Assembly: GCA_976226885.1 (NCBI GenBank)
Contig: OZ320316.1
Location: forward strand, 68,138,001 to 68,202,000
Length of the DNA stretch: 64,000 bases
Source of the DNA: Iphione sp. A-MEVVRFRX5
Lineage: Eukaryota
Direction of reading: 5' to 3'
The notes below the pieces were generated by a model. It saw only the letters and a list, made by a program, of their open reading frames with translations, was not told where the DNA came from and ran no database searches. Shown here in pieces: positions 1,488-24,100 of the stretch. Numbering within the stretch: the stretch's first letter is position 1; the number at the start of each line of letters is the position of its first letter. The position numbers and the translations under genes are program-made.

Positions 1488-4400
1488 GTAAATGAGTCAA
1501 AATACGTATTACACGTCTGAAAATACAGGGGAAGTCCAAATTGTGGTCAGCTCAGATGTTAAATGATGTCACATATCAAAAAAAACCAAAGTATATTTTT
1601 AACTAAATCTGGCTCTCAGGAATAATATATTCCTTTTAGGGTAGAATTTCAAGAGAGCTGAAGGTGTATCTGGGACTTTAATTACTACATGCATATATTT
1701 TTATCGAAATTAGAATTGATATGGCCATAGATTTCTCGTATAGGATGGTATGTGCATATTCATTTGTATCTATATTTCTATAAATGGGAAATGATTGTAG
1801 ATTAGTTTTGAAGTAACACAAAAATATTATTAGCGTGAGTGACTGGTATATCTACCATGTGTCTTATTTGAAAACAAAGAAAGAAAGATAAGTATATGGA
1901 ATCATTTTCAATAAATAAGAGTTCATGTGTAACTAATTCAGAAACTACACCGCGCGACCAACAGTCAAATTCTGGTAAGGATCTCTGGTGCAATAAGCAT
2001 GATTGATTATTGAAGTAAATTCGGATGGAATGTAGTTAGCCACCAAACACTTCTGTTCCCATTTGTACACCACGTGTGGCACTCACCATGGTATTTTTCT
2101 GTCTCATCCGCACTTCAGTTAAATAGTTTTAATCGATACAAATGTCCTAGAGTTAGCAGGACTCCAAGCATATGAAAACATAAAGCACTGGTAAATAACA
2201 TATGACAAAAAATTGTTCCCTTCCTTTTTAACCTGTTCAAATAAAATGCTCACAGTCTAGATATGCATGATTGTACTTATCCAAACGCACCTTTTTATAT
2301 ATTGTGTTCACCTAGAATTAATAGTAGGCTAATAAAATTAATTGCATTCTGCTTCCCTGAAACAATTTCTACTGCACATTGTACTGATAAGATCATATTA
2401 AATTTCTAGGCAACGATATATACGACGAAGCAGGAGGTTTGTATCATGATAGAATGCAGCTTTGCTCATAGTGCTGTACATTGCTCTTAGTAAGGTGTAC
2501 AATAATTGTATTATAGAATGAGTGGCCAATAGTGATATCAGATAGTCCCTCGTTATTCTGAAGAATAGTCATCACAACTTTTTAGGTATTGAGTGATAGG
2601 CTCCACTATCGCATATAGACAGGAAAAGTATGTTTTCATACTGCCTGCTATATATATATATATTATATATATACAGTCGAATGCTGCTATGCAACCAACC
2701 TTCTGTACATCACCAAAGTGGTTACAGTACTTGTTTGGGTCACATTATTATCTGACTTTGTATTAAATAATTTATTCAATGGTGGGATTATGTCTGTACG
2801 TCTGATCAAGTCGGATGTAACAACTATCAAAGGCAAAACCCTCACACCTATAACAGTGCATATTTTGCACGTACCTGCTACTACATGCTAAAGTGTGATG
2901 TAAAGGCCTCTAAGGGCATCAGGATGGCCAAGGATGGGGGTAACAGGTAGACAAGGTCTGGGAACGACCTCTCCACTTTGAGACATTCAAAACATATGAA
3001 TATTACTTTGAGATATGTAGTTGCAGGGTGATTTGGTCACTGTATGGTCTGGTCACGTTAGTGTGTTAAGCACATAGGTTAACAAAATTATGCTATAGAT
3101 TCGGTTCTGGAGAAATTTGCCTGGTATAGAGGTTTTGGTCACATTGTGGTGTACGTGGTTTCATCATAGCATTCGACTGTGCCTGTATTTGAAGCATTGA
3201 TCTTGTCAGCATCAATGGTTGTGCTCTAACTGTTCAGTTTGCCACACCTTTTTTTAAAAATATGGATCTCTGTAAATGCAGAGTGACAATTACTCTGTTA
3301 TTTTACCAGGTGGCTCAGTATATAAGGATCCAGCAGGAGGCGTCATCAGCCTGCGCATGACTCACCTTCAGAAGTGGGGTGACTTCCAGAAACGGCAGAA
3401 CAATGGACAGGAGATGCTTGGTAGGTCAACTTGATTATGCCCCTTAGTTCTTAACACTTAAAAGCAGGTTTATACAGCCTGACATATCAAAAGAAAAGCA
3501 AGACATTGTGGCATGTTAGCAGTAGTATAAGGGTCTGTTGCATCCAAACAAACCTGACCTACTTATTCCATTTGCTTCACTTTTGTTATCAGTAGTTTGT
3601 CTGATAAAGATGTAAACAATGTCTGAATATATGTGTACTTTCTTGATAAAGATGTCTGGGGCTGTAGGTGACCTATTTTCTGGTAAACAACTTTTCTGAT
3701 CCTATAGATTATCCGATCAGGTCACCCGAAGCAGTATTTCATCAATGGTTATATTTCCTAGTGGGGGGAGGGTTGTTGACATAGGAGTTTATGATGTTGT
3801 CAAGCTACGCCACGTTGGCGGCACATTCCTGATAAGGATGTCTAGGGTCAACATCCTGGGATAGGGTTCATCAAATTAGCAGGAGATGACGTCCCTGGAC
3901 AGGACTATGGATTCATCAAATTACCAGGAGATGACTTCCCAGGACAGGACTGTACGGATTCATCAAATTAGCAGGAGATGATTGCGGGAGAGTAGATTCA
4001 CAGGGGTACGTGGATAAGTTATGTAGGGATGAACGAGTTGGTGTGCAGAGCATGTATATAATGTGGGAGGTGGAGTGCAGTCACACCATCATCTCTCCAG
4101 TGCCACCGAACTATGACACCATCATCTCTCCAATGCCGCCAAACTTCAACACTGTCATCCCTCTAATACTGCCAAACTCTGACACTGTCATCTCTTGGAA
4201 ACCTACAGGTAGGTTCTTTCATGTTAAAATTAGGCATACCGTATGTAATATGTCATGTATTTTTTACCTAGTGTATCCCTTTTGAATGGTATATGTAAAG
4301 AAATTTTGTCTACTTTTTGCAGAATGAAACATGCAATGTCAACTGAATCTGTGATGGGTGACAATGTGGTGAACATCCCTAAGAACTCCTATGATGTGGT

Positions 4401-7400
4401 CAATACTCCCCTGAGTGTCAACATTGGAAAGAATCCATGGATCCCAGTGTCCTGTCATGACGGTATGTTGACCATACTACTATGGGAGATGGATAACAAG
4501 GACATATGGAGACTGTGTGAGAGGAAAGTTATGCCTCTTTCCTTAAAAACTGATTGAACGTGGAGCCGCAAATGAACGAGATAGACAACATCATGGTAAG
4601 ATTCAAGGAGGGTGAACATGGCCTTGAGAGAATGGCGTCTCTCAAAGGGGACATGTACATCTCTCTGAATAAACACTACAACCTAGTGACCATTTGGGAG
4701 TTTGTACCAAGGATGTTTGATTGTAAGGGGGGGTCACATACCTACGTGACATGGCATTGCTTGGAAGTTCAGTGAGTGGCACCACTTGAAGGACTTTCGC
4801 CAAAGGATACCACCATGTGAAAGAGTCATGAAGGAGGACGGCAAGCCTCCTTCTGGTGACACTGAGAAAAAGAAGTGTGAGGAGGAGATCATACCCTCTG
4901 TTGATGGACAAGGTCAAGACAATTTGATGTTAGAGTGTGTGTATCATATGTTGTATACTGGTTTTACACATTTGTCTAATGCATCATGTCCAGGATGTGA
5001 CATGTTTAAACCAGGGTAGATCATAAAGGAAATGGTGGTTGGTTGGCAGAATGGGAGAAAAAGGTATAGTTTCAGTTCCACAATGTTAAGAGAAGAATGT
5101 GTATTTCATATCTTGCTTCTATGTGTAAAGAATGCAGGAAATTATTAAACTGGGGACCCAACCTATATACAGGTCAAATGATCAGTAGGGTTATCTAGCA
5201 AGATGATATGTTGAAAGGGATGTTATCGAGGGGGTCACCTCCAAAACAGTACTCTGACATGATCAAAAAGTTAAAAGACAGAAGTCGTACTGAAGACGAT
5301 ATGAGTCCCTTTAAGGTAAAAGCTTCATTGTGCATTTTGCAGGTTGAAGGAAACCTCAAAAGGTTGAGCCGTGAAACGTGTGCTGGTTGTGAAATCTATG
5401 CTCCAGGGCAAGATGCTCACATGAGTGATGGAGGTTATCTGGATGAATGGAAAACTAAAATCTGTCATCATCTAGGTGTATCCCAATGGGAGGTTAGTAA
5501 ATCAGTCGCTATGTCTAGTTGAGACCCCTGAAGAGGTAGTGAAGGCACTCCAGTCCATTTTGGCAGAAGGTAGCACACCACAATCCATTAGGACCGATGG
5601 TGTGATAATTTCAAAACAAGACAGTCAGAACTTTCCTGGACAAACAAGGTATACTTCGAGTCGACATTGTATCGCTAATTCATCAGTAGGAATAAACTAT
5701 GCTATATAGACGTACTCCAAGATTTAGTGAAGAGTTACAACCACACGATGCACTCTAGTTTAGGCCCAACATCTGCATCAGTGAACAAGGAAAACGAAAG
5801 TGAAATGAGACTAGGCCAGTATATGCTGACAAGGAAGAAGAAGAAGACTCTTTCTCCTCAAAGAATGTGGTTTAATGTTGGCAATGAAGTCCATGTGTCC
5901 TTCAGAAGAGAACCGTTTGACTGAGAGTATGGTCAGAAGTGGTCAGGCAAAGTCTTCATCATCTCAGAAAGGAGGAGACGAAATAGTATTCCCATCTGTA
6001 AGTTAAAAGACTGGTATGGAGAACCTATTAAAGGAACATTCTACCAACAGCAGCTTCAGAAAGTGAATGTCAGTGACAAAGACAGTTTCAAATCGAAAAG
6101 ATTTTGAAGCGAAGAAAATGCAATGGAAAGAATCAAGTCTTGGTCAAGTGGTTACATTGGCCCAAGAAATTCAACCAGTTGATCGACAAGGATAACATCA
6201 CCACACTGTAAACATGGAGGATATATTTTTTTCTGTCTAGCAACAATTCATTGGAGTATACCAGAGGCTATGAACCTGAAAGGAGAAAAACAATGGGGGT
6301 GTGCTCCAGAAGACTTTCAGTATAGGACTCTGGTGGCAACAAATCTCTTTGTGTTCTGTGATGTAATAGAAGACAGTTATGTATGAAACAGGAAACTCCC
6401 CATCATACGATGTGTAAAACGTGATTTCCTTACAAGACATGTTGTACAGAATTACACTTTGTTAATCAGTTTTCCTATCACCAGAATGGAAATTAATATC
6501 ATCACAATACATATAACGGAAGAGGACTTCGAATTTGGAACATTACCAACCAACAAGGTGTACACTTCATTTCTTTAAAAAGTAAGTGCCAACATATGGA
6601 AGAAACATTTCAAAGCCATGTTAGAAGGGAAGATACGTCCAGGCAAACAGGGAATGTGACAAGTAATGGATACTCCTGAAGAAGATAGTAAACCACCAGC
6701 AACCATCAAAGTAGTCAGTAATACTCAACAGGTGGTGGAACAAGCCAAGAACTAGACAAATAAACATAATCAAAAGAGGAAACGAGTCACATTTTATTCA
6801 CAGAACAACAACCAATCAAAACAAGAGAAAATCTACTACAAAACAATATGTGCCCATCAGAAACTGACAGTCTACTCTGACACATCAGTCAAGAAAGGCA
6901 ACGACAAGAAAAACAAAACCACCACCACAGAGGAGGAGGAGATGTCAGTCAGCTGTAAAATGAGTCACCCCTAAAAATCCCTCAGATGCACACCTAAATG
7001 TGTGATGATGAGACCTGACTAACACTAGTCCCAACCAAAACCTTAATTTTTTTTAAAACAAGGACATAGACTTGAATAATTTCTCACCAAAATATTCCCA
7101 AACAAATGCATACAATGAAAAAAACTATAATTTCAAGCCAGCTACAAGGCATGATGGAATGACACAGGTGGACACTTGCACCAATGAAAACGTCTGTTCA
7201 TATGTGCAGAAAAGTCTATCTTAAGGGGTGGATAAGAGCTATGGAATTGTTTCCTAGTTGGTAGCGCACATCACAAGTCGTCGTTCTCAACAACAGAGAT
7301 GTGAAAAACACATGCATACACACATGGCAACCCATACCCCCAAGAAGTGGGGTGGGGTGCCACCCTTCTTGGACAGTCTGAGACCACTTTCTAAGAGGAC

Positions 7401-10400
7401 GTATTCAACCATGCTGCATTTCCATTTTCCTGCCATTCCTCTCCTTCGAGAGAATATCCGCCTATCCATATGGGACATGTGAATACATACCCCAGCGCAA
7501 GCATGTGATATGCACAGGGAGGAACCTGAGGCATTACCCTCGTTTGATCGGCATCAGAGTTTACACCTATGTGGACTTGCACAGGAATCGTATCACCCAT
7601 GTGCCACCCATTGACATGATGCCTTTCACAGTGGTGGACTTGAGGGACAACCCTCTGAATTGTTCAGCGGTTGCTGCATTTTCCCCTGCTAGGATCGTCC
7701 AGAATGCTTTTAATTTTACCACTGCTACTACCAACTCGTCTTCCTCTTCTTCTTTGGATACAAACAAAGGGGTGTACCACAGGAGAATAGTCCGACAGTG
7801 ACTGTTGCCTATCAACCTGAGGGTCTATGGGACTGTGTGTCTGTGTGAGTGTTGCAATCACATTCCTTGTTAAGAAATGGTTTTATGCTCAGAGCAGGAG
7901 GAGTGATCTGCAATTGAGAAAAAGAGAGTTAAGAATGAAGGATGATCGTCTTAGCATTACCAGTTCCAACATATTTGACACTCCTGTGGACACGGCCACC
8001 ACCGTTCATGTTGTGGAAGTCCATTCCACACCCACAGAAAAAGAAATGGATACTGCACCTATATGCCACCACCACGACAACCAACACTACCAGATCAAGC
8101 ACCACTGTGCCATTTAAGCTCAGTGGGGTTGTACTCCCTCACTCCTCCTTTGTTTGTGAGTACCTCCTCACATAGCAGTGCAGGTAACTTTCCTCCCTTG
8201 GTAAATCCCTGTTTAGGATTCACTCAAAACTTGTTCCAGTGATGCTCCTGATGTTTATCCTCATCGCCATTGTAATATTCCCTTGCTTGGTAATAATAAG
8301 ACAAGATTTAACTTAGTTTTCTACTCCTTTACTGCACTGCACATGTGGTGTTACTCCATGGCTCCTGTGTGGTGGTCCCTCACTGAATATTCCTGCCTAG
8401 CATGTTACCTGGTGGTACTGGTACACTACATCCCTTCCTTTCTTCAGAAAACAAAACTTCCTACCTCTCTTCCCTGACTTCAGTTCTTCTTCAATATAAA
8501 GTCATGATGTTTAAAAGACCGAGTGTTCCTATAATACTGAGTTCATGGCCTTCCTTTGATTTCACTGAGTATTGCTCGCTGTTGAAGTTAGATGTGCTCT
8601 GTGGATCCTTTTTCTTCCCTTTCACATACATGAATTTTGCCACTGCTGTTCCATCTTCTGTCTTCACCTTTTCACCTCCATCTTTCTTGTTCTCTCCTCC
8701 CTTGTCACTGATCTGTACTCTGTCTTCACAGTTGCATCCTCCAAGTTCTTTTTCATATTTTTCTTTAGCTTCCTCTTCACCTTCTTTTTCACATCTTTCT
8801 TCTCATTTGCACCAGAATGTTGTTGTCTGATGATGGCTTCCCTCTCACTGTTGATGTTACCACTTATGTAGATATCCTTGATTAATAGTTTGTGTTTTCC
8901 ATCACCTTTATCATGTTGGCAACATGGTAGCCTCCTCACTAATTTGGCTTCCAGCCTAGTTTCCTCATTCACATGAGATTTCCTCCGGCCCTCTTTCCAG
9001 TTCCCAATGCTAGTCGATACATTGGAGTCCTTTTGTCAGTGTTATTCCCCTCTACAGTAATGGAATGCACTCTTGGTGACTTGGGTGGTCCCATCCATAG
9101 CAAATTCAATTTGTCTGCAGTCTGTTTACCAAGAAGAATCTGTCCAGTCCCCTAGATAACAGTAAACTCATCTCGACAATGTTTCTTACTGGCTGGACAC
9201 ACTATCACGGCCTCAAATATTCCCAAGACTTCTATGGGTTTTGCTTACCCATATGTGAAAAGCTTCTTGTTGGACAGTCAGGACACACACTTCACTTTGT
9301 TATATTTCATCATGTTCAAGGTTGCCTTGTCCATGATGTTACAGGATGCACCTGAGTCGATCAACACAGATCTCAGGTCAACTTCTTCAACTTCCAGGTC
9401 AACCATACCAGTTCATCTTCTCTGCCCCTACTGCAAAGATGTAGTCTCCATAACCTCCAACCTGTCCACCATGATTCACCTGTTATGTTTTTCCCTCTTC
9501 TTGGTACTTCTCCCTTTGTTGCTTCTGTTGAGTGTCTTTGCCCTTGGTGTGACAGCATACCACAAAATGTCCCATTTTCCCACATTTGCTGCATTCCTTA
9601 CCTCGGGCAGGGCATTCCTGATCCTTTGACAAGTGATCCTTCTTGTTGCAGTGGAAACATCTCTTCCCACTGCCATGCCCACTGTTTCTTTCTCTGGTTG
9701 CACCTCCCGCTCCCTCTTGTTCCTCCTTATTCCCCTTTGGGACATTACCCTTCCTCTGTACTGCATTCACTTCAGTTGATGCCTCGGTCCTGGTCATCAA
9801 CTTCATTTGTGCCTTGACTGCTTCATAGGCACATGTGATATCCTCTAAGTCCTTTAATGTGGCATTTACCATGCCCACCACGTCCACTGCCGCCACAGCA
9901 TTCACCATCACCATCACCACCCTCACAGGAAGTACCACCACCACCACTACCACAGCCACCAGTTCCACCAACCCGACCTTCTAGAGCAAAACTTGGCAGA
10001 GGGACGAAGAGACTGTAGCCATATCCATCTTTCAGGAGATCAAGGTGGCTGTCCAGGAAAGGAAGAAATCTGCTGAATATCGTAATAAGAAAGCAAGAAA
10101 GTGAGCATATAAACATTTTCAGTATTACTTATTTTTTAGCAGAAAACCTATTCATTTTGCTGTAGCCAGGTGACCTTATATATCATTTTTAAAACATTGT
10201 GTGCTGCCTGAGTGGGTATAGTAAAATCAGTGTCTGCTGTAGTCAGGTGTCCGTGTATATCATTTTTAAAACATGGTGTGTTTCCTCAGCAGGCAAAGTA
10301 GAATCAGTGTCTGCTGTAGTCAGGTGTCCTTACATCATTTTTAAAACATTGTGTGTTGCCTCTGTAGAAATAGGAAAATCAGTGACTGTTATGTAGTCAG

Positions 10401-12084
10401 ATGTCCTTATATATCTTTATATCATTTTAAATCGTTGTGGGCTGTGGCCACAAGTGTTCATAATCACTGTACTGTAAACAGGCATTAAAACATCAAATAA
10501 AGTTTGATGAACTTTTTGCATTCTGTTTTATTCTATGTGCAGTTCAATATAGAAGTAACATTTTATGGTAATAAAGTATTAAAAAATGTTCTACCATGCC
10601 TACACCAGTCTGCGGTACACCACTTTTAAACAAAAACAATATAACTACTATGAACAGACTAAACCAGGTAGCCAAGGTTTTAACACAGGGCCAGAACTCA
10701 TGCACGACTTCCTCTTCAAAATGCAATACAGACAGCACTATGGCCCCAGACATCCTTATCAGGAAAGTACACATGTACTTAGACATTGTTTAGATCCTTA
10801 TCAGACAAACTACTGATAATAAAAGTGAACCAAACAGAAAAAGAAGGTAAGGTTTGTTTGGGATGCAAGAGACCCTTATACTACTACTGTTAGCTACCAA
10901 AAAATAACAGTGGTCAGATGTGGGGTGGGGCAAGGGGTGAAAACATGTACATGGGATGTTTTCTGCCCATGAATACGTTTGTGTGTTAGTTGATCATAAG
11001 TCATAAGGGAAATGTACATGATGTAGAGTTCAGAAGTTGTATTCACTTTTTATTACTTCTATTACCTCTTGAGGACTCATTTATACTTTCCTTATCCAAT
11101 TAACCCAATTGTAGATATACTACTTTTTTCCTAGGACCTTATCACCACTTTGATAATGTAAACTAGAGTGTATCTTCAGACACAAAAATAGGCCTGATGA
11201 GCGAAATCCTGTTTACTCATTTTAAAGTCAATGTTTTCCACTGACATTCTTATCTTATTGTGCCATTTCACAATATAAATTATTTAAGACCTCCTACACA
11301 GGCTTTTCATCCAGCACTATTTGTTCTGTGGAGGGACATTCAATGATAAGGCGTATCATGGGCAAGGAGACATGGCACTCACATTTCATTTGTCATAGCA
11401 GGGTAGCCATTGGTTAACTGACAGCTCATTCAATTCGTTTTTTCTTCCTGGAGAAGTTGTATTCACCTTGACAGTGGACTATTACAAAAACTCGTCTTTT
11501 ACTCGTTTGTTTGAGCATAACTTTCACCATGAACCTGTCTTCCTGCATGTTGCAAGTAAAATATCGACATTGCGTTCATTTATGATAATGCTTAACCATA
11601 GCTCCTCTATACTTCAGTGTTAGAAATCAAAATAACATTATGTTGATCCTATCGTCCTTTCCCTAGCCAAACTGCAACATGTTGGACGTTCGGGTGTCCC
11701 TGGAAGTACCCGCTACGCGGCGCATGAGCATGGAGTAATGACTGAAGAGATGACACGTGACATCATCGCTAATTATGCTCTTCTGGACGAGTACAGGAGG
11801 TTGCAGGAAGGTACGTGTTGGAAATATATCCAGAAAGGTACTTTATGGAAAGTGTTGACCTTTCACACATACCCAAAATTAAAAGCATCGGTGAAGCCAT
11901 CAACTTTAGCAAACCGAGATAGACACTAGGTGTCTCCCTCAGAATAGTCCAGGTGGTGCTACCATCGGCTGCAATTCCCAAAGGCGCTTTAATACAGTTA
12001 TCGCTGTGGTTAGACGTATCCATAGACGCTTCACCTTTTCACTGAAGTGCCTGAGGGTATTGCAGTTGACAGCAGCATCACCTA

Positions 12085-15100: not shown

Positions 15101-18100
15101 TGGCGAGGTCATGGGGGTTGTCCTCAGATGCACCAGTTCTACCCGCCTCTGAAAGGTCAATGACCTCATTAAAGGGATTCGCTCAGTTGGCCCAGGCAGT
15201 CAATGTTCCCTTGGGAACAATTAGAGCAATTACCCCAGTGACCTTGATTGCTATCAATCAAGACACTTTGAGGTCGACCTGTGTCAGTCAAGCTGTGGGG
15301 CTGATCTCAATTGCTAATCAGGTTGACCATGCTGCAGGTAGATCATCCCTGGACAATTTGACTTTGAATGTGAATGCTCACATGTTGGGATCGATGTATG
15401 TTGGTCAAGATTCAGGTCAATCGTTGCTGGATAATTCTACTTTGAATTTGAATACTTGTGCATAAGGGTCAATTTAGGTCATCCAAGCTGTAGGAGGTCG
15501 ATCGTCAGTGGATAATTGAACTTTCAATACTCATGCTTTGGTGTTGGCTTAAGCTGGCCAACCTATATTGTCTTTGAATGATTCAGCTAGCAGGCATTCA
15601 AGTTATGTTGGCTTATTGCTCTCAATCCCTAACTTGACTCCAGAAGTCAAAGTGTTGAGTGGGTCATATCCAGAAATTAGTCATAAGTCAAAGCATTGAA
15701 CAGGTCATATCCAGAAATACAGGGTTAGCAGCAGATAACCCTGTTCATATGTGTGTGTAGCCCATTGTCTGCTCCTCTGGTGGCAGTTAGAGTGCTCGAT
15801 TCCAATCTTGTGGATACCTTTGCGAACTTGACAAGTTCTTTTAGTCAAGTTGCAGGAGCAGTTGATGCAGCACTTGGTGCAACATATGGGACAGGCTGTG
15901 CACCCTCATGAGGCACTCATGATATCACAGCAGCAGTTGTTGCAATCTTTTTCTATGGACATGCGACATGGTATTGAGTCTCTGGGGCATAATATAGCCC
16001 AGGGATTAAATATGTAGATTGAACACGAACAGGACAATGAGGATGAGGAAGCTTAGGATGATGTGGCTTTTCAGGTCTCAGCAGTGTCATTGGAGCCAGA
16101 ATCTCTTTCTTTCATGCCCCCTTTTGATAGAATGGACATTGGCAATGAGGTCAGGTCACCTTTGGGTGGGGATGGGGTCCCTTTATCTAAGAAGGTGTTG
16201 CAGCCATTTAAGGCAGAATTTCTGGGGGACATGTGAAAGAGTCATCTCCAGCCTTCCAACCTTGAGCAATTGTAGGTGTGCAGGCTCAATGATATTCTGT
16301 TTATGAACTTGTGAAAGGAGGTGTGAGAGAGGAAGTTTGTACTCCAGAAGGTCAGCAATGACCTCATGTCATGTCTCATCACTTCATGTAGGGCAATAGA
16401 GCTGATTGTTCCCCATGTGGAAGAGAACCATTGGGTGGCAAATGCACAGCAAGCTGTCATAGACTCCTTGGTGTTGGGGGGTTCCAAGGGTTAATCAAGA
16501 CATGTAGGAAAGAGTTGAAACCACTACCTGTCTTCTCCGAGATTCCTTTTGGCAACAATATTCTTTCAGTGGTGAAGGAAGTAAAAGATAACTCTATCCT
16601 GTTGAGTCAATTGGAAAAGAAGGCAGGTGAGTTGTCGCAACCCTCAAAAACCCCTGTTTACAGGGGAAGTGCCAGAGGCAGAGAAGCTAGAGGCAGGGGT
16701 GCTTCATTCCACGCATTCTGTAGGTTCCAGTTTTAACATTATCAGTATCAGCCAAGGCCCCAGTACTACCAGCAGCCACCACCTGTGCCATACCAGACCA
16801 TTCACCAACCCCAAAAATTGCAGCAGCAGCAGCAACAACAGTAACAGCCTCCTCCAGTGAGGAAATACATTTTGTTGCAGGGAACTTAGTTTCCTTCAGA
16901 AAGCAGTAGGCAGGGTGACTTGTGATAGGGAAGTGTTGGAAGCAGTGTCAAACTATAAGCTTGACCTTATGTTCTTGCACTGTTGAGCAGTGACCTGTCC
17001 CATTCTTGGAAGCCAAGTCGAAATTTGTGCAAGAGAAATTGTCTAACCTCTTTTAAAGTAAGGTCCATTTTGGTTTTGGATCCAGTTCTGCCTGATGCTT
17101 TTCTGGGTCACCAAGTACAAACATTTTAAGATGGACACCTTGGAAACTGTGTTGACTCTCATCTTAGAGGGTTTGTTTCATTACATCAGCAGATCTTAAG
17201 AATGTGTATTATATTAATCCCATTTGATTTTTGCATTGGAAGTATTTGGCTTTTGCTTGGCGGGGAGTGGTCGATCGGTGTGACATGTTACCATTCAGTC
17301 TGTCATCTGCCCTTAGAAACTTTATGAAGATCATGGCTCCTCCTGTTGCTCACCTAAGGGAGCAAGGGGTGGTGTTGGCTTCTTACATTGATGACATTAT
17401 TATTATTGACAGAGACACTCAGGAATATTACTTTTTCATCTCTAAGACTGTGAAATTATTGCAGTCTGTTGGCTTAGAACCAGCCCAGTCTGTTATCTTT
17501 CTGGGTTACATTAACTTTGTTGACATGGTGTTCATGTCTACTGAGTCTAGTGTGGCCAACGTCAGTGCTCACACTGAGTCTGTTTTGGTGCAAGGGGTCA
17601 ATGTCATTTGTAGTGTGGCCTTAATTTTGGGAAAGGTTGTTCACCTTACCAGGGCTTCTATGTATGGTAAGAACCACTTCAGGACTTTAGACATTTATAG
17701 ATGTGGTCTCTTGCTCAAGCTGGACAGGCTCAATATGAATGTTATATGACCTTATTTTGTGCTGCTGGGCAAGATATGAGGTAGTGACTTGGAATCTGCC
17801 TTGCATTGGTAAATTAGTTGTTCAGGAGTTCAGCCATGTTTTGTATAGGATGGGGAGTTAGCTCAGTGGTAGAGCACTGGTCCACTGACTGAGAGGTTGC
17901 AGGTTCAATCCTGGGGTTGGGACTCTTGATCAAGACTAGATAGATTTACTGTAGCCCCAACCCAGAGTGGTCTACAACTCATAAAAAGGCTGTGGGTGTA
18001 TAGGATTCTGTCTCCTATGCACAAAAAGACCTCAGAAACCTACTCAAAATAAGAGTAGGGGGCAACCCTGGGTATTCTGGTCTTTTAATTCTCAACAATA

Positions 18101-21100
18101 GATGGTAGTATGCTATCCCAGGAGGATATGGAAGAGCCCAGTCATGTGATCGGGAATATCTAGTTTCTGGTAAAAGATACAATGAAATGAAAAACTGAAA
18201 AATGAAATACTGATGCTTCTGAGTTCAGTTTGGGTGCATGGTTTGATGGTTCTGCCTTTTATGGTAGATGGAAGGTGCATGAGAGTGTTTCAGATTGACA
18301 CACTAGAGGTTAAAGTGGTGGTGTTAGCTTTAAAGAGTTGTTTTCTGATAAGGACAGATTTCACATCAAGTTAATGTGGGATAATACTACTGCTGTTTGT
18401 TATGTGAACAAGATGGGAGGTGGTAAGTGCCCACTGGTGCATATTGTGGCCTATAAGATTTGGTTGTTTTTTTAGGGGAAGGCATCTTTTTGTCACTGCT
18501 TTCTATATTTCAGGTCATTCAAACAAACAGGCTGATTATGACATTTTCAAGATAATTTGGAGTAATGCATTAGCCCCCCTCCCAATGTTTTAGGCAGTGG
18601 TGAGTTCTTAAGGAACTCCTAATATTGATTTGTTTGCCTCTAGGCTTAGCCACAAAATGCCTGAGTATGTCAGTTGGCATCCTGATCCAGGAGCTGTGTT
18701 TATTGATGCTTTTCCAGGTGCATTGCCAAGGTGGTGCAGGATCACCCAAGGTCACCCCTGTTATTGATGCCTGCTGGGCCTCGCAGGACCTGGTACAGCA
18801 GGCTTTTCCAAATTGCCCGGCAACCTCCTCTGTTGTTTAGGAAGTCTGACTCAACACCCTAGTTCATCTAGAAAACCCATCAAATCTTGGGGCCATAAAA
18901 ATTATGGCTCTTATCTATTGAATGCAGCTCTTAATGGGAAAGATTTATCCACTTCTGCAATAGCTATGATGTTGTGCTCTTAGAGGCCTAAGACCAGGTT
19001 GGTCTATGACATGTATCTGAAAGGTGGAATACTTTGTGTTTTGAGAAGAACTGGGATCCCTCAAAACCCACTCTCAAACAGGATATGCACTACCTTATGA
19101 ATTTGTTCAATAGAGGCATCAGGTATAGTGCCCTGAACATTCTAAGGAGCACCTTGTCTGCAGTCCTTGCTTTGTTTAGAGGGGTTGTTTTGGGAAAGCA
19201 TCCATATGTGATCAGGATGTTTACTGGATTCTTTAATGTTAGGCCTCCTGTTGCTTGACCAGACTATACCTAGGCTGTGTCCAAGGTTTGTGACTTTTTT
19301 AAGCTTTAGAACCTTTGTCATTCTTGTCCCTAAAGAAGTTTACACTCAATTGTAACATCCTTTTGCTTCTGGCTAGTAGTGGTAAGATGCAGACTAGCTG
19401 TATCATCTAGTTATCCAACATTCATGAGGTTTGGGATGGTAATCTGCAGATTGTCTCCACCAAGACGCTTAAGCAGTCTAGGAAGGGTAGATATGCTTCC
19501 CAGCTTAAGTTGCTGCCTTTTGTGGCCCAACCAAGTGTCTGTGTTGTTGGATGTCTCAAGGAGTATATTGCTAGGACAGCATCTTTCAGAGCTAAACAAG
19601 AACATGATTCTCATAATTCTGTTTCCACTTCTACTCTAGCTAGGTGGATGAAAGAGGCCATGGTGTTGTCTGGTATTGACACATAGATTTTCTTCATTCA
19701 TTCCACAAGGTCTGTCTCTTTGTATAAGCTGGCATAGATGGGTATGCCATTGTCAGAGATTATGACAAGGGGGATGTGGAGTCATGCGAGTACTTTCAAG
19801 CTTTATTACTGGAAGGACATTGGAGGTTGACAATCAGCAATAGGCTGTTTGCTCAACCACAGATGTCCATGCCGATTTTAAACAAGTCATTCTTAGTGCT
19901 TGAGATGAATCAGCTGATGTCCAGGTTTGTTTGGTCAATCTCCAAGTCTTCTGTTAGTGAAAGTTTTGGATCATTCAGCACTTCTCATGTTGGATCAATT
20001 TATTGGATCAATTTATTGAATTCATTAAAGTCGGCATGGATGTCTGTGGCATCAATGAGTGCAGTTGAACAGAAGGCTTCAAGTTAGGTTCGGCTGGCAC
20101 AGGCAGCAATGATCTTAATTGGCTTTCAGCTGACTCCTCCTGTAAAATTGAGCTTAATTGGCTCATTGAAGGAACCAGGGATCCTGAATGAATCATTGTG
20201 CTTAGTAGTACCCCCCAAGCTCAATAGGTGTGTTCAACTTTTAATGGTTTATCTTCTCTCCCTTCTTAACCAAGGTTGTATATGTGTGTTCCTATAACTG
20301 CTTCAGCTGCTGTCGCTAAACCCCCTGATAGTCACAGTTGGCTGTCAGGGGCCTTGGACAAGCTTACATAGTTCTTGATGAAATTGCAAGAGCATCAGTT
20401 TAACTTACAGCGACAGTTCATACTGGAATTGTCAGAGAATCTCAAGGAAGGTTTTTCAGCCTTTGGACAAAACTTGTCAGCAGGGTTAGATCAACAAGAA
20501 GCCAATAATAATCTTCCTGAGAGGGAAGATGCAGACGCCATGGCCTCTGTGCTTTCTGAGGTAAGGAAGAGGCAAATTCACTGTCTTTATTGGTGGCCCA
20601 GATTGTAAGGCAGGTTTCCAAGTTAGTTAATCTTTATTTCAGCAGAGTAGACACATATAGGTAGCACTGTGGAGCTCTTCGTAAATCAGAGACATTATAT
20701 ACCAAATAGTTCATGACCCTAGTGTCATAGTTTATAACCTTATGTCAAAGTATGTACCCTTTAGGTCATAGGAAACATGAACTCTGACCAGGGTGCATGA
20801 CCTGGGTCATGACCGGTCAATTTTCAAATTAACCCCTGTTCCCACTCTAACACCCTTTCATGATATATGTCTTTTCCAGGTGTCCACTGTCAACACCTTT
20901 TACTGATAACTCCCAAGATCTACATTTCAATGTTCCAATTTGTTATGTCCACATGTCAGCCTTACCTAGATTGTGGGTGTCTGCTCCAGCTAAGACTGTT
21001 GGTGTTCAGACTTCTAGTGGCACCACTTAGTAACATGGTACAGCTGTTGTCTCCACACAGATAGTGCTTAAAGACATATCTGCACACTGTACAAGGAACT

Positions 21101-24100
21101 CGCTTTCATGTCTTAATGCTTTCATAAATAAATATGATGTTTATTTAACCACAATTAAAATCAAAATTAATTATATAACACATTGTGTTACAAGATGGAC
21201 ACGGGGGGGGGGGGGGAAATCAGGTGGGATATGTCCAGGAGAGTTGTTAGCCTCTTCAACAAGGTCCTAAAGCCACGACAGGTGGATTTTCTGGCAGACA
21301 CATGCACGAGCCATTTGAGGCCCTCAGACACTCAAATCATATTAAAACACCCTAAACCATCTGGGTAGTCCCGCAAATATAGAGGCTATAAAGTTTATGG
21401 CCTTTCTCTGTTGAATGCAGTCCCTCAATGACAAGGATTTATCTCTATCCATGAAAGCCAATATATTGTTTTCCTGGGGGCCTAAGACACAGTTAGTTTA
21501 TTTTTCCTGTCTTAAAAGATGGAGTACTTTGTGTTTCCAGAAGGATTGGAATCCTGTGAACCATTCCTTTATACAAACCATGCAGTTTCTCGTTCATTTG
21601 TTCAATACGAGAATCAGATATAGTGATCTCAATAGTGCTAGAAATGCTTTGTCTGCATTTGAGAAGCATCCTGATGTATTCAGGTTGCTCTGCGGTTTCT
21701 TTAACATGAGACCTGCTGTAGCTAGTTAGTAGCTTAACTACACCTGGGATGACCCTAAGGTGTTAGACTTTCTTAAGCTCTGGATGCCCTTGTCTTTGTT
21801 TTCTCTTGAGAGGTTGACTTGGATGTGTAACATGCTTCTTTTGTTGGCCACTACTGACAGGATTCAGACTATCTTTAATATTCAGTTGTCCAATATTCAT
21901 GAGATTGGAGATCAGATAGTTTTTCACAAAGACGTTTTAGGTATAGCAAGTGTGCTTCTAAGATCAAATTGGTACCTTTTGAGGCTCAGCTAGGTATTTG
22001 TGTGATCAAATGTCTGAAGAAATGTATTACTAGGACTGCCTCTCTCTGAGGTAGTTAAGAAAATGATTCTTTGTTTATATTATCTTCTGCCTGTTGTAAG
22101 TCTGTTTCCCCATCCACTTTGGCAAGGTGGACTCAGGCCTGTTTCACATGTGTCCATTATAGAGGAACACATCCATTTGCACTTCTGTTGCTTCACTAAC
22201 CTCAATGGAGCTATTCATATGCCCATGTTAGCATGACTAAAAGAACCATTTGTGTTTCCCTGATCCATCTAGAATAGGTTATCCCATATCATACTCTCTG
22301 GTAGCATAGGAAAGTACTGAAGGAAGCATCTGGTAACCATGTGCAGCTCATAATTTCATGCACACAATAGGGTGTGCATTTTTTATGCACAATTCATTAT
22401 AAAAACATCAATGGATAAATGAGAAACCCCCCTCAGGAAGTCATGTCTTTAGCTTTTATACGCGGGTCTTTTCAATCCATTCATCTAGGTCTGCCTCTTC
22501 TTCTAAGCTGGCCGAGATGGGTATGTCTTTGTCAGAAATTATGAAGAGGGGCATGTGGAGTCCTGCCCATACTTTTAAGTTTTTTCTACTTGAAGGATAT
22601 TCAGCAATAGGCTTTTTGTTCTACCTCAGAGCCTTATGGCTTTGAAGTCTCAGGGAGCTGCCTGGTGTCTGCCACTAGTACTGAGGTTAGTTGCTTACAT
22701 GAACTGACCAGTGAAATGGGTCATGACTTTGTAACATTGGGTAGACACTACCTGCCTCTCCCTCCATTTGGGCATCAATTACCATTAGTTTCTGTGGTTT
22801 CTCTTCTCATCCTATTGCTGTCTATTAAAGTGCCTATGTGTATAGCAGTCTACCATAGTGCCACCTGGATTGCATCTCAGTTAGACACCTGTGTCTGTCC
22901 ACTAGTACAAAGTCATGATCAAGTTTTACTGGTAAGTTCATGTCATCTACTAATTTACTTGGCGCACTAGGCCCTGCATTATGAGGTATTTAGATTATTT
23001 GGTTATAAATCCCTTTATTAGGATCTTGATTTTAAGCAATCAGAATGATTGTTTCAATGCCCCATGGTAAAATGCCTGCTCCGATAGTTGCCTCGAATTA
23101 CCTACATTCTGTGGTGGGTTTATACAGCAGGGATACCCGCAGTGAGTCCCATGCCTACAGTAGAGTGGCTCAAGGGAGGGAGCAGCTCCTCCTACGTCCA
23201 GCCACCGGAAGCTCAGGATCGACGACCGACCTGCAGCGGATACCCGCAGGTGCGCTGGATCTGGTCGATTGGCGCGGCAAAGTTACGCCCGATTCGGCGC
23301 GGAGCAAGTGAGTCTATCAGCAACCATCCTCCACTGTGTATGAAAATCCTATCTGGAGAAAATGCTTATGAAACTTCGACGATCTTAGGTTACCCTCTGG
23401 TTATTTTTCAACGAACGTTTCACAATACTGTTCTACAGAAACTAGTGAAACAGGTTCCAGAGTTGGACCTGGGGGGAGGGCATGATACATGCGTATATAT
23501 CATTGAAGCGACTCAATTTTCATTTGTCCTCTTTGAATCACTGTAGATGGAGTCAGAACTTTGGCGGTCATTCGTACATTCAGAAGATGGCCCGCCCGCG
23601 CTCCTCATTACGCACGGGTACTGCTTCGTCGCACAATGCGCCTTCCTCCAGGAGACCGAAGACGTCGAACACACCACAACCGGTCGAGGACAGGTACTTG
23701 TGGACGCCCGAGTCGGTAAGCTCCGTAATATAGATGCATACATATTATTATATAGAGAGATATGTGCGTATTTGTGTATGTGTAGCATAAACTGTTTATA
23801 GCAGTACTGTATAACTTAGACTGCCTCACGCACTCCTTAGGTTAGTTGGTTGGGGAGTTTTCTGGTCACCTGGCAGCAAATCACCCGACCACAGTTTAAC
23901 TTGCCGGGTAGTACTGCCGGGAGGTTATAACTTTTTTGTTGAGGATATCCACATGTCAATCCTTTTTACACGTATATCATATAATCACGTATACGTAGTT
24001 ACACCTTTGCATGAGTAAATAGGATTAATTTAGAAGAAAGTTTGAGCCATTCATAGGTAGATTGAATGTTATTAATGTATGACACAGTGCACATATGTAA

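Follow-up and report, generated by a model that had tools for sequence, protein, structure and literature searches.

The genome of Iphione sp. A-MEVVRFRX5 carries a family of intronless genes, here named LRR-B, each predicted to encode a small membrane protein with a single leucine-rich repeat (LRR). LRR-B is an accessory gene of one clade of Polintons, not a standalone processed pseudogene. It occurs in an exchangeable cassette with a paralogue, LRR-A, and the ectodomains of both proteins are under purifying selection. The family was traced from one copy in a 64,000-nucleotide stretch of contig OZ320316.1 (assembly GCA_976226885.1, positions 68,138,001 to 68,202,000 of the forward strand), referred to below as the window. 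This copy is a pseudogene, a dead fossil within a deleted Polinton. An earlier note on the window had read it as a host-derived LRR receptor captured as Polinton cargo; the note missed the sister LRR membrane-protein gene, the shuffled cassette and the death of the window copy.

Linkage of LRR-B to one Polinton clade

A DNA-level search of the genome (1.18 Gb) with the window LRR-B gene returned only the gene itself; its relatives came from protein searches. With the window ectodomain as query, 65 of 75 candidates matched at E<=1, and 55, including the window copy, at E<1e-3. Open frames of at least 288 amino acids (aa) without stops are present in 37 of the 54 other matches, and a few matches have shifted tails. 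The intact proteins, 300-380 aa long and encoded without introns, consist of a signal peptide, a Cys cap, one LRR, a short two-Cys cap, a stalk, a transmembrane (TM) segment and a Ser/Pro-rich basic tail.

In a search for the putative capsid gene, 97 of the 1430 candidates were scored. Identity was 66-100% for 39 of them (clade 1) and 34-38% for the other 58, which are therefore a sample of the distant set. Among the 39 clade-1 capsid genes, 31 have an LRR-B copy no more than 40 kb away, as against 1 among the 58 sampled from other clades; the chance expectation for linkage of LRR-B to clade-1 capsid genes is 0.15 of 55. Core Polinton genes are found near 44 of the 55 LRR-B matches: a clade-1 capsid gene at 31, the integrase at the window copy, and other core remnants at 12. 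The remaining matches have only a cassette partner (seven), a weak integrase match (two) or nothing in 9-30 kb of flank (two). Intact copies linked to Polinton genes, which the earlier note had suggested looking for, are present in the genome. Separately, the more distant capsid candidates (34-38% identity), at least 58 and many in identical sets, indicate several other young Polinton clades.

The complete cassette-bearing elements are 19-20 kb long. Terminal inverted repeats (TIRs) and a 6-bp target duplication were found in all five complete elements checked and in the window element, and the cassette lies inside the TIRs in 4 of 4 checked, which bears out the claim that LRR-B is Polinton cargo. 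Pfam matches in intact relatives cover a protein-primed PolB (DNA_pol_B_2, E 4e-34), an integrase (rve, E 1e-13) with chromodomain (Chromo, E 2e-7) and, in one relative, a packaging ATPase (Pox_A32, E 7e-7), and their putative capsid, PolB and LRR-A genes come after a basic open reading frame (ORF) of 139-153 aa. A 432-aa ORF is presumably the capsid gene and a 137-aa ORF penton-like, labels that come from size and position; neither has a Pfam, NCBIfam or PDB sequence match. The scanned N-terminal parts of PolB, where adintoviruses have an OTU-like domain, gave no Pfam match, and none of the listed ORFs stood out as adenain-like, no direct search for adenain having been made. TIRs, the 6-bp duplication, PolB, an rve integrase with chromodomain, an A32-like ATPase and a length of 19-20 kb are shared with Polintons/Mavericks and adintoviruses (Starrett et al. 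2021, PMC8502044; Buck et al. 2024, PMC11071296).

Eight clade-1 capsid genes have no LRR-B nearby. Both LRR-A and LRR-B are missing downstream of the six that were inspected; at another of the eight loci, L098, LRR-B is present and split by a transposase-like insertion. Transposase-like ORFs in or beside Polintons (L098:6097-8150, L097:4002-6018) are presumably piggyBac-like. One member of the cassette-less, recently spreading subfamily measures 15.9 kb, has TIRs and keeps the repeat arrays, and it shares 99% identity with two other copies; elements can therefore multiply in the genome without the cassette.

Fold, selection and shuffling of the LRR-A/LRR-B pair

By alignment, the 86-aa LRR-B ectodomain comprises one full LRR of the form LxxLxLxxN and the first strand of the C-cap, set between Cys-rich N- and C-caps, the C-cap having two Cys only; it is among the smallest LRR folds. 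The compact receptor layout described in the earlier note is real, but it holds only one full repeat. Pfam gives sub-threshold LRR matches only on intact LRR-B (LRR_1 in 13 of 17 proteins, best E 0.0018), so the LRR assignment rests on alignment and fold. AlphaFold predicts an LRR for a natural intact ectodomain, as the note had supposed (predicted local distance difference test, pLDDT, 85.6; predicted template-modelling score, pTM, 0.77). In Foldseek, chains of the GPIb-IX family took ranks 1-3 and 5 (E 2e-3 to 1e-2; best TM-score 0.64). VIA tied fibromodulin (Z 8.5), a GPIb-IX chain (Z 8.0) and TLR3 (Z 8.0), with a root-mean-square deviation of 2.4 over 83 of 86 residues for the GPIb-IX chain. 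A PDB sequence search gave 211 matches at E<=0.01, the best 60 all LRR-type. LRR-B is predicted to be an extracellular-type LRR type I membrane protein; the signal peptides and single TM helices of LRR-B and LRR-A come from a hydropathy scan only (17 LRR-B and 13 LRR-A proteins, one LRR-B sequence, L075, being truncated).

GPIb-beta and GPIX share with LRR-B a minimal one-repeat LRR between Cys caps. GPIb-IX proteins have a four-Cys C-cap, and identity of LRR-B as a GPIb-beta/GPIX orthologue was rejected on its two-Cys C-cap; LRR-B further differs in its long Ser/Pro/basic tail and in being virus-borne, and there is no evidence of orthology. A Toll-like receptor identity was also rejected, as there is one LRR only and a Toll/interleukin-1 receptor domain was not found in the Pfam scan. 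The ESM Atlas look-alike of LRR-B is LRRC25-like (0.93, 171 of 256 features). Similarity to vertebrate LRRC25 (look-alikes of 309-326 aa) is one of features only, without alignment, and LRRC25 differs in having more repeats (LRR_8) and in being a cellular chordate gene; it is linked to damping of RIG-I-like signalling in the available text of PMC7108857. The animal-type Cys caps make the host origin claimed in the earlier note plausible, but searches of the genome with two different queries gave no spliced host parent gene.

LRR-A is an intronless gene of about 197 aa with 68 matches at E<=0.1 in the genome, and for 45 of the 55 LRR-B matches an LRR-A copy is found no farther than 5 kb away, a count that used 59 distinct stronger places. 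The protein has a signal peptide, an LRR-like ectodomain, a strongly hydrophobic TM segment and a short tail; 12 of 13 tails contain NxxY. Its ectodomain model (pLDDT 81.6) has weak LRR fold matches, and hhalign shows the ectodomains of LRR-A and LRR-B to be homologous (probability 84%, E 8e-6).

The ratio of non-synonymous to synonymous substitution (dN/dS) was computed pairwise (NG86), keeping pairs with 0.05<dS<1.2; the pairs are not independent. Among copies the median is 0.22 for the LRR-B ectodomain (25 of 171 pairs, maximum 0.39) and 0.21 for the LRR-A ectodomain (15 of 105), the capsid giving 0.14 (120 of 276). Elsewhere in LRR-B the medians are 0.35 for the TM segment (39 pairs), 0.60 for the tail (51) and 1.0 for the stalk (33). 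The tail carries an S-x-T/S-S-S cluster (SITSS type) in 25 of 28 proteins as against 2% of shuffled tails. Poly-Pro is present in 25 of 28, counted without a shuffle control, and a basic end in 23 of 28. The pattern R/K-x(2-5)-PY, which we take to be of the PY nuclear localization signal (PY-NLS) kind, occurs in 20 of 28 as against 18% of shuffled tails. A pLxIS-like reading of the tail motif was rejected, Leu being missing in several members.

The cassette consists of LRR-A, LRR-B and a third gene in at least five orders and orientations, spaced by arrays of ~203-bp units that are 70-85% alike. Modules of 0.95-1.5 kb, 89-92% alike, are common to otherwise different cassettes. Elements with capsids 97-98% identical have LRR-B ectodomains only 43-47% identical, whereas other backbones at 90% carry LRR-B ectodomains that are 91% identical. 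It is likely that recombination at the ~200-bp arrays swaps, inverts and deletes modules. A repeat-bounded, exchangeable accessory region is thus present in these Polintons.

The ~203-bp arrays flank each accessory module, in both orientations (L055:5459-5983 and 8445-9413; L091:2228-4516; also L052, L058, L068, L076, L084 and L087), and the repeat has no special or stable fold (z -0.1). The third slot is taken by a gene of ~300 aa or ~225 aa depending on the subclade (L056:512-1411, L084:5587-6468, L072:2726-3409), without any Pfam match above the cut-off. Palindromic derivatives, in which two inverted cassette copies surround PolB scraps, occur at L060-L062 (C2:7.91-7.94 Mb) and L063-L065 (C15:45.79-45.82 Mb); the one on C2 also holds tandem amplifications of ~2 kb.

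Possible roles of the pair

The reading we prefer, tentatively and as a possibility, is that LRR-B and LRR-A would jointly engage a membrane protein of the host cell in which they are made, so that this protein is re-routed or silenced, in the way of adenovirus E3. Two features suggest it: i) the two small type I membrane proteins are non-essential, under selection and subject to allele swapping, which points to interaction with the host; and ii) the endocytosis-type tail of LRR-A and the phosphorylatable, Pro-rich tail of LRR-B point to re-routing of a host membrane protein. The two proteins would be expressed during an active phase of the element, and LRR-B would bind in cis through its small ectodomain and its conserved Ser/Thr/Gly-rich TM segment. 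The SITSS cluster would be phosphorylated, the poly-Pro stretch would recruit adaptors, and the NxxY tail of LRR-A would drive internalization of the target, perhaps an immune or stress receptor. GPIb-beta and GPIX are single-pass subunits that act in cis, and LRRC26 is likewise a minimal LRR-TM cis subunit. The adenovirus E3 proteins (E3/19K, RID alpha/beta), from a related kind of virus, resemble LRR-A and LRR-B in being small type I membrane proteins encoded in a cassette that the virus can do without, and RID proteins drive receptor removal. LRR-A and LRR-B differ in having an LRR fold, and a sequence or fold relation to the E3 proteins is not expected. E3/19K keeps major histocompatibility complex class I in the endoplasmic reticulum, according to the available text of PMC2116308.

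Several points weigh against a re-routing pair. LRR-A and LRR-B reassort independently (elements e7 and e8 are 89% identical in B and 56% in A, e2 and e7 48% in B and 75% in A), and in several elements the two genes lie apart or on opposite strands, both of which weaken an obligate A-B complex. No arms-race signal is seen at the whole-domain level, the LRR-B ectodomain dN/dS having the maximum given above. Neither ectodomain has a Foldseek match at E<=0.001. The tail motif patterns were picked after viewing the alignment, in sequences that share ancestry. The functional parallels with E3 and GPIb-IX are analogies, and a host target, its binding and expression of the pair are hypothetical.

An alternative that keeps the mechanism and changes the target is superinfection exclusion, in which the pair would remove or mask the entry receptor of related Polintons and divergent alleles would be exclusion groups. 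It would account for the high allelic diversity on near-identical backbones, the module swapping and the endocytosis-type NxxY tail; however, a single genome contains young insertions of many allele types side by side with cassette-less ones, the alleles do not track capsid type, and the receptor is hypothetical, so we regard it as unlikely.

The hydropathy of the TM segment, 1.6-2.3 in LRR-B versus 2.6-3.6 in LRR-A, together with the basic end and the PY pattern, could fit a signalling receptor: LRR-B would sense an outside cue, its weakly hydrophobic TM segment would be cut, and the tail would enter the nucleus and control element or host genes. This is rather improbable. The PY pattern is also found at the stated rate in shuffled tails, the tail evolves at a dN/dS of 0.6, there is no DNA-binding or enzymatic domain, and the independent reassortment of A and B speaks against a cognate ligand-receptor pair. 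The more elaborate version, Polinton-encoded surface signalling in which LRR-A would be a co-receptor or ligand and swappable alleles would sense the host state or infected neighbours and set latency versus activation, is a long shot.

The poly-Pro stretch and the presence of LRR-TM adhesion proteins among the fold matches could also suit a spread or adhesion factor that makes cell contacts, engages the actin machinery and helps virions to pass between cells. A single LRR would be a small surface for trans binding, however, and poly-Pro length varies widely; this role too seems rather doubtful. For a plain decoy soaking up a host cytokine or pattern ligand, the animal-type LRR caps, common to Toll-like, VLR and Slit ectodomains, would be appropriate, but the single full repeat is a small surface for soluble ligands and the long tail with its conserved motif would be superfluous. 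An ectodomain of one repeat joined to a long, conserved tail would better fit an adaptor, and a decoy is very unlikely. A neutral hitch-hiker or processed host pseudogene, to which the dead window copy and the four matches with no Polinton marker or a weak integrase match only might point, is hardly credible and for the family largely refuted by purifying selection, the open frames, clade linkage, location inside the TIRs and the failure to find a spliced host parent, being true only of the lost function of the window copy.

Whether animal Polintons are infectious viruses or transposons only is a standing question. It is framed as one of viruses versus transposons in the available text of PMC8502044. 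A selected pair of secretory-pathway membrane proteins that is dispensable for in-genome copying makes most sense if Polintons deal with the host cell surface, and LRR-A and LRR-B are concrete proteins with which host targets may be found.

The window element and relatives elsewhere

The window element is a deleted Polinton of 7.4 kb (3521-10888), bounded by TIRs and a 6-bp target duplication (Table 1). The ATPase, putative capsid, PolB and LRR-A genes are gone; a profile search found no LRR-A remnant in the window (best independent E-value, iE, 0.036, on the wrong strand), and the ~203-bp repeat unit is absent from the element. LRR-B was described in the earlier note as co-oriented among virus-like ORFs. 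This is true of the Polinton remnants upstream but not of the minus-strand gag-protease fragment downstream, which we take to be Gypsy-like and which matches no Polinton locus compared.

The peptides quoted in the earlier note were all found on the plus strand, in the open frames 7382-7801 (ectodomain, with cap and LRR) and 7821-8117 (TM segment and tail). A profile of six natural relatives matches the window at 7436-7768 (iE 1.8e-34) and 7806-8063 (iE 2.3e-17). The gene is more decayed than the two or so frameshifts of the note imply: the reading frame shifts close to 7412-7420, 7770 and 7808 and probably once more close to 8060, an in-frame stop lies at 7818-7820, and three of the six Cys conserved in the alignment to natural relatives are lost. 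The His-rich stretch that the note quoted as the tail probably comes from the wrong frame, and nothing recognisable is left of the basic C-terminus typical of relatives. The window LRR-B pieces have zero Pfam hits. Between the window piece and four intact copies, synonymous sites are 76-85% different and non-synonymous sites 29-38%; the lineage was therefore constrained before decay.

Table 1. Features of the Polinton in the window (window coordinates)
Feature	Position	Strand	Basis or remark
Left target-site duplication GTTAGC	3515..3520		Same hexamer at 10889-10894
Left TIR, begins AGTAGT	3521..3667	+	146 nt, 88% identical to right arm
PC4-domain ORF remnant	4315..5513	+	tblastn ~40% to an ORF of locus L051; intact relative: Pfam PC4 E 1e-7
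rve integrase with chromodomain, remnant, N-part deleted	5530..6202	+	Pieces at 75-83% identity; intact relative: Pfam rve, Chromo
137-aa ORF remnant, putatively penton-like (size, position)	6258..6545	+	Comparison with intact relatives
Basic 139-153-aa ORF remnant, putatively core-protein-like	6579..6806	+	Comparison with intact relatives
LRR-B pseudogene: signal peptide, one-LRR ectodomain, stalk, TM, tail	7411..8117	+	Frames, relatives, profile match
LRR-B ectodomain (N-cap, one LRR, short C-cap), 3/6 conserved Cys replaced	7463..7714	+	Alignment; 51% identity to nearest intact copy
TM segment, spread over frames, stop at 7818-7820 inside	7789..7880	+	Frames, alignment, profile
LSITSS motif, conserved, cytoplasmic	7950..7967	+	Frames, alignment, motif count
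Presumed Gypsy-like fragment, inserted in the Polinton: gag with two zinc knuckles, protease	8850..10000	-	Limits approximate; zf-CCHC E 0.0095, sub-threshold; DSGAS motif
Right TIR, ends ACTACT	10743..10888	-	Pairs with left TIR
Right target-site duplication GTTAGC	10889..10894		Same hexamer as left

A profile search of 1.84 billion representatives gave 12 single-domain matches among the best 150, at least 10 of them with the stalk-TM-tail plan, and nearly all of the 12 come from ENA assemblies. Word-index searches are insensitive for LRR-B, returning 1 and 2 matches as against the 12. There are hints of one LRR-A relative and one LRR-B relative outside this genome on one contig. The LRR-B pattern was unmatched in a scan of IMG/VR. 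A metagenome scan gave seven loci, and Polinton linkage was seen for none (four of the seven inspected). Intronless one-repeat LRR genes at 33-35% identity occur on short metagenome contigs at L131:2152-2895 (TM segment, short tail) and L133:813-1385, with no Polinton gene seen alongside. BFVD yielded no match at E<=0.001, the best having E 0.14. Giant viruses and entomopoxviruses also carry LRR genes, but the products are listed there as plain multi-repeat LRR proteins.

The accessory genes named in the available text of PMC8502044 and PMC11071296 are PLA2X, GasderminX, Cupiennin, Oncoid, Bcl2, IAP and unnamed Adintoc groups, with no LRR membrane protein among them. An LRR gene is not named in the available text of PMC8502044, whose supplementary gene maps may label such genes otherwise, and that of PMC11071296 mentions LRR proteins for large DNA viruses only. 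Repeats bracketing replication modules are described in 10.64898/2026.10.13.758929, in the available text of which neither "leucine" nor "LRR" was found. A literature search by title and the start of the abstract, covering papers outside subscription, found no report of LRR membrane cargo in Polintons.

Other features were noted in and around the window. Short tandem repeats lie subterminally inside the window element at 3864-3998, 4083-4181 and 10158-10418 (periods of 45-47, 33 and 77 bp). Decayed reverse-transcriptase and recombinase-like pieces, presumably DIRS-like, occupy window positions 17228-22650 (RVT_1 E 0.075 only). A LINE-like element is present in tandem 20 kb upstream of the window (L066, L070); it has one ORF of 509 aa, one of 213 aa and one for an endonuclease-reverse transcriptase.
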